From Patescibacteria group bacterium (GTDB taxonomy: Bacteria > Patescibacteriota > UBA1384 > JBBRAU01): a stretch of 64,000 nt of DNA. Both the position numbers and the translations under genes were made by a program. The DNA is taken from contig JBBRAU010000002.1 of NCBI GenBank assembly GCA_038206475.1, forward strand, positions 13,892 to 77,891. The letters are read 5' to 3'. The notes below the pieces were generated by a model that saw nothing but the letters and a program-made list of their open reading frames with translations, made no database searches and was not told the DNA's origin. This document shows positions 238 to 28,116 of this stretch, piece by piece; position 1 is the first letter of the stretch; each line of letters begins with the position of its first letter.

Positions 238-313
238 GGGCCTGTAGCTCATCTGGTAGAGCGCAGCATTCGCATTGCTGAGGTAAGGAGTTCGAGTCTC
301 CTCAGGTCCACCA
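238..313 (+). tRNA. tRNA-Ala (anticodon CGC)
   Basis: 76-nt cloverleaf read by eye: acceptor GGGCCTG/CAGGTCC with G3:U70 Ala identity pair, D-arm GCTCATCTGGTAGAGC, anticodon loop TTCGCAT, T-arm GGAGTTCGAGTCTCC, encoded CCA. Confidence 0.85.
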
Positions 314-1869: not shown

Positions 1870-1945
1870 TGGTGGACCCTACCGGATTCGAACCGGTGAC
1901 CTTCTCCATGCCATGGAGACGCTCTACCAACTGAGCCAAGGGCCC
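1870..1945 (-). tRNA. tRNA-Ala (anticodon GGC)
   Basis: Reverse complement folds as a 76-nt cloverleaf: acceptor GGGCCCT/AGGGTCC with G3:U70, anticodon loop ATGGCAT, T-arm GGTTCGAATCC, encoded CCA. Confidence 0.85.
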
Positions 1946-22165: not shown

Positions 22166-22762
22166 CTACCGGCTGTAATACTCAACAATTAATTCACGGT
22201 CGAGTTCACTGGGCATCTCTTCGGTTTCAGGCGCGTGCAGCACCTCAATGGTACGGCTTGCAGCGGTCGCTTTCAGCCAACTGGGCGTTTCTTCAAAAGT
22301 CGAGCGCGGAAAGACATCTGGGCCAACAATTTGCAGTCGGTCATTTGGGCTGGCAATAATTGAGGCAATGGTCACTTTCTTACCATTTTGCTTGATGTGG
22401 CCATGGCTAATCATTTGGCGGGCCAGGGAACGGGAGGCGGCTAAACCGGCACGGTAGAGAATGTTGTCCAGACGCAGCTCGAGCATACGCACCAGGTTTT
22501 CACCGGTGTCGCCTTGGCGGCGGACTGCCTCACCAAAGAAGCGCTTGAGCTGCTCTTCGCGCAGGCCATAAATGGCCTTAGCGCGCTGCTTCTCGTGCAG
22601 CTGGCGACCATATTCTGAAATTTTAATTCTCATGGTTGGACCATGCTCACCTGGCGGATAGGTGCGGCGGCTAACAGGGCATTTCTGAGAGAAACACTTC
22701 TCGCCCTTTAAAAACAGCTTTTTACCTTCACGACGACAACGACGACAAACCGGTTCGTGCAT
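22166..22762 (-). CDS. rpsD: 30S ribosomal protein S4 (Cys-cluster N-terminus)
   Basis: SRR..PPGEHG..YGRQLHEKQ...RLDNILYRAG. Confidence 0.9.
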   Translation of the reverse strand: MHEPVCRRCRREGKKLFLKGEKCFSQKCPVSRRTYPPGEHGPTMRIKISEYGRQLHEKQRAKAIYGLREEQLKRFFGEAVRRQGDTGENLVRMLELRLDNILYRAGLAASRSLARQMISHGHIKQNGKKVTIASIIASPNDRLQIVGPDVFPRSTFEETPSWLKATAASRTIEVLHAPETEEMPSELDRELIVEYYSR

Positions 22763-22777
22763 AACGTCCTTTCCTGC

Positions 22778-23179
22778 CTAAACCCGCCGGGCTTTTTTAG
22801 GCCGGCAACCGTTGTGAGGGATGGGGGTGCGATCTTTTAAGGCTGAGATGCTGAAACCGCCGGTTGAGAAGGCGCGCAGGGCGGCATCACGGCCAGAGCC
22901 AACACCGGTGACGGTGACGGCAATGTCGTGCAGACCAAACTGACGAGCTTTCTCAATCACGCGCTGTGTTGCCACGGTAGCAGCGTACGGAGTAGAGCGG
23001 CGGGCACCCTTAAAACCGCTGGATCCGGCCGAAGACCAAGCCAAAACCGCACCAGTCGGATCAGTGACCGAGATGATGGTGTTGTTGAACGTCGCTTGAA
23101 TATACACTCGGCCTTTAGGGACTTGGCGGAGCTGTTTCTTGCGACGAGGCGTGGCGACGGTTGGCGTGGCGGTTGGCAT
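22778..23179 (-). CDS. rpsK: 30S ribosomal protein S11
   Basis: IQATFNNTIISVTDPTG...IPHNGCRPKKARRV. Confidence 0.9.
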   Translation of the reverse strand: MPTATPTVATPRRKKQLRQVPKGRVYIQATFNNTIISVTDPTGAVLAWSSAGSSGFKGARRSTPYAATVATQRVIEKARQFGLHDIAVTVTGVGSGRDAALRAFSTGGFSISALKDRTPIPHNGCRPKKARRV

Positions 23180-23192
23180 AGGTATATTCTTT

Positions 23193-23582
23193 CTACGTCT
23201 TCTGGCCCGACGGCTTTTTACCGGAGGCGGCGGTCATGCGTTTGTTGCCGCGAACGGTGCGTGAGTTGGTTTTTGTCTGCTGACCGCGCACGGGCAGATG
23301 CTTTTTGTGACGCAGGCCTCGGTAGCTGTTGATTTCTACCAAGCGCTTAATATTTTGGCCAATCTGCATGCGCAGATCGCCCTCTACTTTGTACTGTTTT
23401 TCAATCAAATTGCGCAGGCGGTCAACTTCAGCGTCAGACAGCTCTTTCGTCCGTTTGCCGGTCTCAATTTTGGCCTGCTCCAACACGGAGCGACTGCTGG
23501 TTGGCCCAATACCATAAATATAGCGAAGGGCGATCGCAATCGGCTTGTCGGCCGGAAGGTTCACACCTGCAATACGTGCCAT
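23193..23582 (-). CDS. rpsM: 30S ribosomal protein S13
   Basis: MARIAGVNLP..K...IAL..IYGIG. Confidence 0.9.
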   Translation of the reverse strand: MARIAGVNLPADKPIAIALRYIYGIGPTSSRSVLEQAKIETGKRTKELSDAEVDRLRNLIEKQYKVEGDLRMQIGQNIKRLVEINSYRGLRHKKHLPVRGQQTKTNSRTVRGNKRMTAASGKKPSGQKT

Positions 23583-23585
23583 AAT

Positions 23586-23939
23586 TTACTTTTCCTCTAC
23601 CCTTGGCGCTGTTTGTGTTTGGGGTTGCTGCAGATTACTCGAACCACTCCCCGGCGTTTGAGGGACTGGCAGTTGAGACACATTTTTTTTACCGAAGCTC
23701 GGACCTTCATGTTGTACCTCTTCCTTCTGCAGGCGGCGGACAATCCGACCGCGCGTTAAATCGTAGGGCGACATCTCAACCGTCACCTGATCACCAGGCA
23801 ACAATTTAATGAAATGCTTGCGCATCTTTCCGCCGACGTAGGCCAAAACTTCGTGGCCAGACTCAAGGCGTACCCGAAACATTGCACTCGGCAGTGCTTC
23901 CAGCACACTTCCAGTCAAAGCGATAGTGTCACCGGCCAA
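23586..23939 (-). CDS. infA: Translation initiation factor IF-1 with ~50-codon C-terminal read-through overlapping rpmJ
   Basis: S1-like IF-1 core ([52 protein letters not shown]); TTG start; no in-frame stop until 23586. Confidence 0.75.
23597..23710 (-). CDS. rpmJ: 50S ribosomal protein L36
   Basis: Manual translation gives [37 protein letters not shown], a canonical L36 with C11, C14, C27, H32 zinc ligands; below the ORF-track length cutoff. Confidence 0.85.
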
Positions 23940-24088
23940 AGCGGTACATCCTCTCAGGGTTGTTTGAGATACTCAAGACGCTCAAAAAATCGGAGCCGAT
24001 ACGCCGAACGTAGCAATGCAACATTCGATCGGCCTGACGTGCTTTAAGGTAGCAAACTATCGTCATTTGGTCAAGCATTCGCCCACGC

Positions 24089-24835
24089 TCAGGCGGTCAG
24101 AATTCGCGGGCCGTTTTTCGTCACGGCAATGGTATGCTCAAAGTGAGCGGACGGCTGGCCGTCGGCGGTGGTCACCGTCCAATCATCCTGACCAAAACTG
24201 AGATCGGCAACGCCAACATTGACCATCGGTTCAATAGCCAAGACCATCCCCAATTCTAAGGGTATATCGCCGTCAGGAGTAACAAAATTCGGCACGTTTG
24301 GATCTTCGTGGACGGCGTAGCCGACGCCGTGACCGACAAAGTCACGCACCAGCGTAAAGCCAGCCGGCTCAACAAACTCTTGAATAGCCCGACCGATGTC
24401 ATTCAAAGTATTTCCCAGGGTCGCAGCGGCAATGCCGCGAGCCAGCGACTCCTCGGTGACGCTCAACAGACGGCGTCGCGATTCGTCAATCTCGGCAACC
24501 GGCACCGTTACTGCTGTGTCGGTGTAGAGGCCATCGTAGTAAATGCCGAGATCGAGGCCGACAATTTGGCCAGCTTTCAGTTTGACAGCAGTTGGCAAGC
24601 CGTGCACCACCTGGCTGTCGGGCGAAACACACAACGCCGCCGGAAAGCCTTGGTAGTCCAAAAAGGCCGGTTCGGCTCCAGCGGCTTTGATAAATTCACG
24701 CGCGCGCTGGTCTAGTTCAATGCCACTGACCCCAGGCTTAACCATCGAGGCCACCTGAGCCAAAATATTGGCCAACAGGTGGCCGCCCTTAGCCAAGCGG
24801 TCAATTTCAGCGTCGGTTTTTGTCTGCTTCATCAC
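24089..24835 (-). CDS. map: Methionine aminopeptidase, type I
   Basis: MetAP fold motifs including GHGVG..HE. Confidence 0.9.
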   Translation of the reverse strand: MMKQTKTDAEIDRLAKGGHLLANILAQVASMVKPGVSGIELDQRAREFIKAAGAEPAFLDYQGFPAALCVSPDSQVVHGLPTAVKLKAGQIVGLDLGIYYDGLYTDTAVTVPVAEIDESRRRLLSVTEESLARGIAAATLGNTLNDIGRAIQEFVEPAGFTLVRDFVGHGVGYAVHEDPNVPNFVTPDGDIPLELGMVLAIEPMVNVGVADLSFGQDDWTVTTADGQPSAHFEHTIAVTKNGPRILTA

Positions 24836-25478
24836 TTTCCTTTATAGCTTGCTTAATTCGTTTGCTGACGGCCGGAACTGTGCCGTGGCCAGAAACGGTC
24901 AACAAGCGGCCGCGAGATTGAAAATAACGGCGCAGCGGTCGGCTCGTGCGTGCAAATAGGCGCAACCTAGCGCGGGCAACTTCCGGGGCATCATCGGCTC
25001 GGCGAATCAGTATTGCTTGGTCGTGCTGGCAGCGGCCTGTTTTAAACGACTGTTGGCGCGGATAGTAACTGCGGTGACAGGTCGGACAAATAAGCCTTTT
25101 CTGCAGCCGCTTCAGTGCTTCGGCTTGGGTAATTTTGATGTAAATAGCTGTGGGCAACGGCCGACCAAGTTTGATCAGCAGGTGATCAAGCCACTTGGCC
25201 TGGCTGACTGTGCGCGGCGTGCCGTCAAAAATTAATTTGCGTTTGCGGCCAGCAGCCTCGATGTTGTGCTCCAATGTCGGCAATAGCAGCTCATCGGGAA
25301 TCAGTTTACCCTGAAGCATGGCGTTTGCCGCTTCGTGGCCGGCTTTTGTCGGACTGTTAGCCAATGCCCGCGTTACATCACCGCTGGAAATGACCGCTGC
25401 GCGCCAAGAGCGGCGCAAACGTTCGGCCTGTGTACCCTTACCGCTGCCCTGTGGCCCAAGAAAGATTGTACTCTGCAC
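24807..25478 (-). CDS. adk: Adenylate kinase
   Basis: P-loop LGPQGSGKGTQ; Cys4 lid (CPTC...C..H); GTG start. Confidence 0.9.
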   Translation of the reverse strand: MQSTIFLGPQGSGKGTQAERLRRSWRAAVISSGDVTRALANSPTKAGHEAANAMLQGKLIPDELLLPTLEHNIEAAGRKRKLIFDGTPRTVSQAKWLDHLLIKLGRPLPTAIYIKITQAEALKRLQKRLICPTCHRSYYPRQQSFKTGRCQHDQAILIRRADDAPEVARARLRLFARTSRPLRRYFQSRGRLLTVSGHGTVPAVSKRIKQAIKESDEADKNRR

Positions 25479-26936: not shown

Positions 26937-27383
26937 CTAGGCTGCTTTAGTTGAAGTTTGGGTAGTCAAAATGCCCAAGTGAGCGGCGACGCTCTTGGTC
27001 GTGGCAATGCCAGACAGGCTGAAGCGTTTGCTCATGTTCGGCGTGGCGACAATTTTGACAGTACCAGGGCGCGTGCGGAGCAGGCCAACCTGTTTTAAGC
27101 GCTGCGGCGTAATAACTGCTCCCTCGTCAAAGCTCGCTTCAAGCGCCGAAAAACGGACGGTGGCCGATTTTGGCGTCAGTGAGCGGAAACCGTTCAGTTT
27201 TGGCAGGCGTTGCACCAGCGGTGTTTGCCCACCTTCAAAGCGCCGCGGGATGTTGTGGCCCGTGCGCGAGTTTTGACCCTTCGTACCGCGGCCAGCGGTT
27301 TTACCCTGGCCAGCGGCAATACCGCGCCCGACACGGCGGCGGCTCTGCTTCGGCATTGAGACGCGAATATCATGCAGTTGCAT
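26937..27383 (-). CDS. rplO: 50S ribosomal protein L15
   Basis: MQLHDIR...GRGIAAGQGKTAGRGTKGQ; start at internal ATG 27383. Confidence 0.85.
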   Translation of the reverse strand: MQLHDIRVSMPKQSRRRVGRGIAAGQGKTAGRGTKGQNSRTGHNIPRRFEGGQTPLVQRLPKLNGFRSLTPKSATVRFSALEASFDEGAVITPQRLKQVGLLRTRPGTVKIVATPNMSKRFSLSGIATTKSVAAHLGILTTQTSTKAA

Positions 27384-28116
27384 TCGTCTCCTCTGTAGCC
27401 AACACCTCGGCCTTTTTAGTCCGTGGCTTGACGGTTTTCTTGACCGGCGTCGCTTCAACTAGTGCGACTTCCTCAACCATTTCGGCTGTTTTGTGGCTGT
27501 CGGCTTGAACGCGGCGCGGACGGTCTGTTTTGAAAGAGGATAGCGCCAAGAGCGTCGCTTTGGTCATGTTAATTTTATTTGAGCTGCCCAAACTCTTGGA
27601 CAGTACGTTTTTGATTCCCGCCAACTCAATGACCGCCCGAACGGCGCCGCCAGCGACAATCGAAGTGCCAGGAGAGGCAGGCTTGAGCAATAAACGCACG
27701 CCAGAGTAACGGACAGTGCTCTCATGCGGGATCGTGTCATTGATAATAGTGACGGTTTGCATATGGCGTTCGGCCTGCGTTTTGGCTTTTTGTACGGCAC
27801 CCGCCACATCGCCGGATTTAGCCACACCCATACCGACCTTGCCAGCACGGTTGCCCATAACCACCAGCGCTCGGAAGCGGATACGGCGACCACCTTTAAC
27901 GACCCGGGAGACACGGTCAACTGAGACTACACGGTCGTCATACTCACTGGTTGAGCGGCTCCGTTGACCGTCGGTCCGGCCGCCGCCTTGGCGACCGCGG
28001 CGCTGACCGTCTGATCCGCCAGCACGTCCGCCCCCCATTGACCGCGAATAATTCGCTGGAGAGGTGGTTGGCCGTGTTTGAGCTGCGCTCGAGGTGGTTG
28101 GTTGTTCTTCAGGCAT
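27370..28116 (-). CDS. rpsE: 30S ribosomal protein S5 (N- and C-terminal extensions)
   Basis: VVKGGRRIRFRALVVMGNRAGKVGMGVAK core; no rpmD (L30) between rpsE and rplO. Confidence 0.9.
   Translation of the reverse strand: MPEEQPTTSSAAQTRPTTSPANYSRSMGGGRAGGSDGQRRGRQGGGRTDGQRSRSTSEYDDRVVSVDRVSRVVKGGRRIRFRALVVMGNRAGKVGMGVAKSGDVAGAVQKAKTQAERHMQTVTIINDTIPHESTVRYSGVRLLLKPASPGTSIVAGGAVRAVIELAGIKNVLSKSLGSSNKINMTKATLLALSSFKTDRPRRVQADSHKTAEMVEEVALVEATPVKKTVKPRTKKAEVLATEETNATA

Follow-up and report, generated by a model that had tools for sequence, protein, structure and literature searches.

An rpmJ gene nested in the infA reading frame

The window (the whole 64,000-nucleotide stretch of DNA analysed here) keeps on its minus strand the gene order secY-adk-map-infA-rpmJ-rpsM-rpsK-rpsD-rpoA-rplQ, as found at the end of the canonical spc/alpha operon. 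The infA reading frame, which encodes IF-1, does not terminate at the end of the IF-1 domain. After the codon for Leu70 (23730-23732), the last residue of the core, it continues for 47 codons before reaching a TAA. This tail encloses the whole of rpmJ, the gene for ribosomal protein L36, which is read in the frame one nucleotide downstream of that of infA (Table 1). The two genes therefore show the geometry of a same-strand overlap in different frames, in which the stop of the upstream gene lies past the end of the downstream gene. The initial annotation had described an IF-1 frame extending about 50 codons beyond the core, an intact rpmJ inside this tail at an offset of one nucleotide, and an A8 homopolymer in the tail after the expected IF-1 end. 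All of this is borne out at the locus, although the figure of 51 further codons given there is slightly high against the 47 counted after Leu70.

Table 1 Positions of the features at the infA-rpmJ locus of the window and of its relatives
Feature	Sequence	Position	Strand	Remarks
infA, complete ORF	window	23586-23939	-	117 codons + TAA, TTG start
IF-1 core, aa 1-70	window	23730-23939	-	S1-like OB fold; PF01176, TIGR00008, alignment, AlphaFold2
C-terminal tail of infA ORF	window	23589-23729	-	47 codons; no clade likeness past Q(K/Q)E(E/D); predicted disordered
infA stop TAA	window	23586-23588	-	8 nt past rpmJ TAG; 3 nt before rpsM ATG
Shine-Dalgarno-like AAGGAAGAGG for rpmJ	window	23717-23726	-	within infA codons K72-E73-E74
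rpmJ (ribosomal protein L36)	window	23597-23710	-	37 aa, ATG start, TAG stop; nested in infA ORF
rpmJ codons 3-4	window	23699-23704	-	GTC CGA (Val-Arg); GTT AGA in L100, L101/L102
A8 homopolymer	window	23683-23690	-	last base of rpmJ codon 7, Lys8, Lys9, A of ATG10
rpmJ codons 11-12	window	23675-23680	-	TGT CTC (Cys-Leu); TGT GAA in L001
rpsM (S13)	window	23193-23582	-	next gene downstream, clade marker; PF00416
infA TTG start	window	23937-23939	-	
infA TTG start	L001	772		
infA TTG start	L002	210		
infA TTG start	L100	2648		
infA TTG start	L101	212		
infA end	L002			TGA overlaps rpmJ ATG (ATGA); overlap 4 nt; IF-1 83 aa
infA end	L100, L101/L102			TAG from rpmJ codons 3-4 (GTT AGA); overlap 11 nt; IF-1 80 aa
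infA end	L001			TGA from rpmJ codons 11-12 (TGT GAA); overlap 35 nt; IF-1 105 aa
infA end	window			TAA past rpmJ end; overlap 125 nt; IF-1 117 aa
rpmJ, uncalled	L003	3230-3343		= window 23597-23710
rpmJ, uncalled	L002	458-571		
rpmJ, uncalled	L100	2880-2993		
rpmJ, uncalled	L101	444-557		
tRNA gene	window	238-310	+	Rfam
tRNA gene	window	1873-1945	-	Rfam

The infA product has a complete IF-1 core and a tail predicted to be disordered

The amino-terminal part of the infA product matches the NCBIfam model TIGR00008 (infA) over aa 4-69 with 104.5 bits (cut-off 61.15) and the Pfam model PF01176 over aa 9-69 with 81.2 bits (cut-off 30.2), and the protein thus scores above the cut-off of the curated bacterial IF-1 family. 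All 21 of the 21 columns that are invariant in an alignment of 40 IF-1 sequences are present. The AlphaFold2 model contains a single S1-like OB-fold domain, built from five strands and a short helix over aa 6-70, with pLDDT values of 79-93. The protein departs from the family in its length. IF-1 usually consists of about 70-75 residues and ends a few residues past GRI(V/I), and most IF-1 homologues among the matches listed have 70-85 aa, versus 117 aa for the window protein.

The region that follows the core (aa 71-117) is predicted to be disordered: the AlphaFold2 model shows no secondary structure there, and the block-mean pLDDT values are 47-58. When 5.8 billion proteins were searched, the 120 IF-1 matches listed, the query itself excepted, covered at most 68% of the 117-aa query. 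The tail by itself proved too short a query, as the search with it returned zero candidates and missed even the self hit. In the eIF1A/aIF1A proteins, which are of similar length (~110-140 aa), the OB-fold core likewise continues into an unstructured C-terminal tail. However, there is no sequence relation past the OB fold, where the window tail is an out-of-frame translation of rpmJ. The eIF-1A and aIF-1A models gave the window IF-1 12-20 bits against cut-offs of 91-202, their matches ended at aa 75-77, and no match of this type spanned the region past the OB fold.

The TTG start of infA is common to all five lineages of the clade described below, and in each of them it is preceded by a Shine-Dalgarno sequence of the GGAG/GAGAGG type. 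Another initiation factor gene, infC, also has a non-ATG start codon (AUU). By analogy, the conserved TTG start of infA might reflect autoregulation.

The nested rpmJ is intact and carries its own initiation signals

The protein encoded by rpmJ aligns with all 38 positions of the L36 model PF00444 and scores 68.1 bits against a cut-off of 26.1. The L36 family is characterized by the zinc-ribbon ligand pattern C-X2-C-X12-C-X4-H, and the four ligands are all there in the window L36, as Cys11, Cys14, Cys27 and His32. Upstream of the ATG, and still within codons of infA, lies the Shine-Dalgarno-like element AAGGAAGAGG, for which the predicted duplex with the canonical anti-Shine-Dalgarno sequence has an energy of -7.2 kcal/mol, the strongest of the eight gene starts tested in the window. 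The A8 homopolymer falls within rpmJ codons 7-10 (GTA AAA AAA ATG), and the pair of lysines that it encodes is common among L36 sequences at this position. Since the L36 frame is intact, the length of the A8 run is fixed.

The window L36 has a serine at position 16 (23663-23665), where the 34 other L36 sequences of 37 residues, which are the ones directly comparable at this position, have Val, Ile, Leu or Met. The surrounding stretch at positions 12-17 (LNCQSL) is atypical as a whole.

Relatives of the window also lack an infA stop before rpmJ

We defined the clade of the window by a search with S13, the product of the next gene downstream. Identity to the window S13 is 81% for L002, 78% for L001/L103, 74% for L101/L102 and 74% for L100, so that the clade spans 74-81% and is separated by a gap from the next sequences at 66% or less. 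The named S13 matches outside the clade are from Patescibacteria (Saccharimonadales, Falkowbacteria, Magasanikbacteria and Kerfeldbacteria); judged from these sequences, the clade is Patescibacteria-like. A scan of the S13 proteins of GTDB species representatives with the pattern MARIAGVN gave, among the matches listed, none above 62% identity. The matches listed came mostly from Saccharibacteria and Patescibacteria MAGs and served as outgroups. In a scan of metagenomes with map, relatives reached 47% identity at most and zero clade members were found.

None of the five clade lineages has an infA stop upstream of rpmJ, and the point at which infA terminates within or past rpmJ differs between them (Table 1). 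The initial annotation had proposed a comparison of infA length in related genomes; it gave 80, 83 and 105 aa, versus 117 aa for the window. At rpmJ codons 3-4, the window and L100 or L101/L102 differ synonymously in both codons, and either change alone abolishes the TAG. Taking the stop sites of all relatives together, the window rpmJ carries two synonymous changes and one amino-acid change, the latter at a variable residue of L36. Since there is no other stop in the infA frame of the window, infA runs to the TAA past the end of rpmJ. Given five lineages only, the direction of change at codons 3-4 is ambiguous on the sequences compared.

An extension of IF-1 with the sequence RRLQ(K/Q)E(E/D) is conserved in all five lineages. 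Past Q(K/Q)E(E/D) the tails are wholly unlike one another, with sequence and length varying even among the four nearest lineages, and full read-through of rpmJ is seen in one genome only. At distant Patescibacteria loci, only 0-2 residues of IF-1 follow the position that corresponds to Leu70, and infA and rpmJ are separated by a spacer of about 5-250 nt. The clade of the window thus differs from this canonical infA-rpmJ arrangement in having no such spacer. The Q(K/Q)E(E/D) motif (window 23721-23729) is also kept in L002 and L001, despite insertions that move it 20-60 nt from the rpmJ start. In these two lineages it cannot be the Shine-Dalgarno sequence of rpmJ because it lies too far from the start codon.

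The IF-1 proteins of L100 (2648-2890) and L101 (212-454) have a divergent core (...GMEVNIPLSGQMSLNRIRVVPGD...), with substitutions at residues shared by all of 40 other IF-1 sequences, for example His29 and Arg40 in the numbering of the window protein.

C-terminal extensions of IF-1 were also found outside the clade, as 83-aa forms (one named Chloroflexota) and one 99-aa form. The IF-1 of a Gracilibacteria MAG (L017, 2151-2298) carries a 48-residue acidic, Ser/Glu-rich C-terminal tail, which ends with a TAA 29 nt before rpmJ and does not overlap it. Thus, long IF-1 tails arise in other Patescibacteria too.

The open frame across rpmJ is within chance expectation

To establish the chance level, we drew 100,000 synonymous re-encodings of the window L36 from the codon usage of the window itself. 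The infA frame was free of stops across rpmJ in 16.7% of these synonymous resamplings. Among the 37 distinct rpmJ genes of the fetched loci, the window's own included, the corresponding frame is fully open in 12. The open frame across rpmJ is within chance, and selection is not needed to account for it. What is unusual is the clade-wide lack of an infA stop before rpmJ, and not the openness of the frame. We also considered an alternative genetic code and rejected it: each of the codons TAA, TAG and TGA serves as the stop of long ORFs in the window, and the anomaly is an absent stop, not a surplus one.

Alternative explanations

The window comes from a metagenome-assembled contig, and the exact 117-aa protein is known from two sources only, a 124-kb NCBI contig and one Logan contig, which may share reads. 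An assembly or sequencing error could accordingly have removed a true infA stop, or introduced a frameshift, just past the IF-1 domain, which would make the long ORF artefactual; a -1 frame change within 23711-23729 would yield an ATGA-type stop like that of L002. Several observations stand against this. The Logan contig (L003, run SRR19962014), which is the product of another pipeline even if it may share reads, agrees with the window at every position of a 401-nt stretch that spans the region (100% identity), and the same 117-aa protein (P0001) was called on it. The IF-1 core secures the frame as far as 23730, and the intact L36, which any indel within 23597-23710 would disrupt, fixes it from 23710 to 23597, the A8 run included. 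The stretch that is not covered by a conserved protein amounts to only 19 nt (23711-23729), exactly as in L100 and L101/L102. On these sequence comparisons an indel artefact is essentially excluded. A systematic base-call error is formally conceivable; no single substitution site for such an error suggests itself, because the relatives also lack a stop there, and with none of the five lineages stopping before rpmJ there is no expected stop to lose. We consider an error of either kind very unlikely. Of the readings offered in the initial annotation, the genuine long overlap is therefore supported, by the identical second assembly, the intact rpmJ and the equal spacer in the relatives, while the same evidence essentially excludes indels as the source of a stop missing through assembly error.

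If the sequence is correct, the overlap could be adaptive, either through a functional IF-1 tail, for example one that contacts the ribosome as the eIF1A tails do, or through a selected ratio of IF-1, L36 and S13 output. The placement of the infA stop exactly 3 nt ahead of the rpsM ATG, the clade-wide conservation of RRLQ(K/Q)E(E/D) beyond the usual IF-1 end, and the sporadic long IF-1 tails of other lineages are in keeping with this. Against it, neither the sequence nor the length of the tail is conserved even between the four nearest lineages, the tail is predicted to be disordered and is not covered by the other IF-1 matches listed, the eIF-1A/aIF-1A matches stop at aa 77 with scores far under the cut-offs, and chance can account for the open frame. 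The position of the stop also loses weight, given that it lies in a short A-rich spacer that holds the rpsM Shine-Dalgarno sequence and in which every frame is likely to contain a stop. An adaptive origin of the overlap is on balance unlikely, and so, to a somewhat greater degree, is the specific proposal that the 117-aa IF-1 is made and the nesting is put to use, with L36 throttled and translation handed over to rpsM, or with the tail acting on the 30S subunit like the eIF1A C-terminal tail. If L36 throttling with a hand-over to rpsM were true, it would give a reduced genome a new means of balancing the amounts of its translation components. Slippage of the ribosome or of RNA polymerase on the A8 run would make the main product something other than the 117-aa protein, a shorter one after a -1 shift and an IF-1-L36 fusion after a +1 shift. 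The infA frame does contain an A_AAA_AAT heptamer (23681-23690) with a Shine-Dalgarno-like element about 30 nt upstream. However, the A run is fully accounted for by the common Lys-Lys codons of L36, a -1 shift at A8 would need 17 further codons to reach a stop and would not restore a normal IF-1, and the relatives terminate infA before or at the point of the A8 run without slippage. Recoding is thus highly improbable, and we rejected frameshifting at A8 as unneeded and unsupported. The abnormal length is the sole point in favour of an infA that is decaying to a pseudogene after stop loss, with IF-1 function supplied from elsewhere. The intact invariant IF-1 columns, a score well above the curated equivalog cut-off and the confidently predicted OB fold speak against decay, and a second infA was not seen within the window; we regard this possibility as extremely remote.

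Neutral 3' elongation as the probable origin of the overlap

Unidirectional overlaps have been attributed mainly to 3' elongation of the upstream gene after the loss of its stop codon, a process for which selection is unnecessary (Fonseca et al. 2013, PMC3887535). We consider it probable that the infA/rpmJ overlap arose in this way as a by-product, through neutral 3' elongation of infA at a coupled junction that lacks a stop. The clade would have inherited a spacer-less, translationally coupled infA/rpmJ junction as its ancestral state, in which the last infA codons, RRLQ(K/Q)E(E/D), lead directly into the ribosome-binding site and start of rpmJ. infA would then terminate at whichever out-of-frame stop occurs first within rpmJ. 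On the branch to the window, substitutions in rpmJ would have abolished the early out-of-frame stops and thereby given IF-1 its 47-residue tail, the sequence of which would be dictated by rpmJ without being itself selected. IF-1 would be made with this disordered tail, and L36 synthesis would start independently, from the strong Shine-Dalgarno sequence and ATG of rpmJ inside the translated infA ORF. Ribosomes finishing infA or rpmJ would stop 3 or 14 nt, respectively, before the rpsM ATG, so that coupling to rpsM would be kept.

The overlap shares several features with the 3'-elongation overlaps described previously (PMC3887535). The genes lie on the same strand, infA in the clade of the window ends at the first out-of-frame stop downstream, the overlap length varies among relatives, the tail is unconserved and selection is not needed. 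The relatives have shorter overlaps (4, 11, 11 and 35 nt) and unrelated tails, as is characteristic of this class. The described overlaps are mostly 1-4 nt long and long ones are often annotation errors, whereas at this locus a whole essential gene of 114 nt is nested. Unlike in usual overlaps, both genes encode universally conserved components of translation, and infA cannot be shortened by choosing another start. A search of the literature for an infA/rpmJ overlap found no description of one. The kind of feature is thus known and infA/rpmJ is an extreme member of it, with a whole essential gene nested and intermediates preserved in relatives.

Translational coupling, the remaining reading in the initial annotation, holds for the clade and fails for the window. 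Coupled junctions of the ATGA/TAATG type have the same geometry as infA/rpmJ in L002 (ATGA) and in L100 and L101/L102 (11 nt), where infA stops 4-11 nt into rpmJ. In the window, this geometry is found at infA/rpsM only, with the TAA 3 nt before the ATG. At infA/rpmJ the infA stop lies 125 nt past the rpmJ ATG, and termination-reinitiation from infA to rpmJ would therefore have been lost. In contrast to a coupled junction, the window rpmJ must initiate internally within a translated ORF.

Both synthesis of the 117-aa IF-1 and its tolerance by the cell are inferred from the sequence. That IF-1 tolerates C-terminal extensions is plausible by analogy, since such extensions occur elsewhere (the Chloroflexota-type, 99-aa and Gracilibacteria forms). 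Two points weigh against neutral 3' elongation. Ribosomes crossing the rpmJ start could reduce L36 synthesis, a cost that the cell would have to absorb, and the conservation of Q(K/Q)E(E/D) in L001 and L002 is left unaccounted for by the model. Taken together, the feature is real, explained and of modest interest, and is best read as a neutral by-product; the probability that it has a function, in regulation or otherwise, is small.

The locus is a natural case in which the universally essential rpmJ lies wholly within the ORF of the essential infA, and the series of 4, 11, 35 and 125 nt provides the neutral 3'-elongation model with an illustration in which the intermediates are real. If the 117-aa protein is made, IF-1 tolerates an arbitrary C-terminal tail of 47 residues, which would be useful for tagging and for access to the A site.

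Gene calling and the surrounding operon

The overlap affects annotation. rpmJ is absent from the stored gene calls of the window's Logan contig (L003) and of L002, L100, L101 and L102, and was called only in L001 (Table 1). L36 would therefore score as missing in these genomes, because the gene calls omit an rpmJ that overlaps infA. This omission bears on claims of ribosomal protein loss and on completeness estimates in Patescibacteria.

The two tRNA genes were the sole matches in an Rfam scan of the 64-kb window, which detected neither a leader nor a regulatory RNA near infA. A promoter and terminator scan of 22700-24900 gave about as many hits as in shuffled controls, and none of them fell in the infA-rpmJ region. 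Short overlaps are routine in the ribosomal protein operon of the window. The same-strand overlap of adk and map, for example, measures 26-29 nt in the window (24807-24835) and 17 nt in L100 (1816-1832); it is a second overlap of medium length that the clade has conserved.

Further upstream in the operon, the L30 gene is missing between the genes for S5 and L15 (window 27370-27458). Bacteria of the Candidate Phyla Radiation are known to lack L30. L15 went undetected by Pfam at E <= 1e-3 and was recognized with TIGR01071 (114 bits); its probable ATG is at 27383, and with the end of S5 at 27370 this gives an overlap of about 14 nt. The S5 ORF itself (27370-28116) translates to 248 aa. About 59 residues, rich in Arg and Gly, precede the N-terminal domain, and about 50 follow the C-terminal domain. 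This C-terminal tail of S5 may be another 3' extension.
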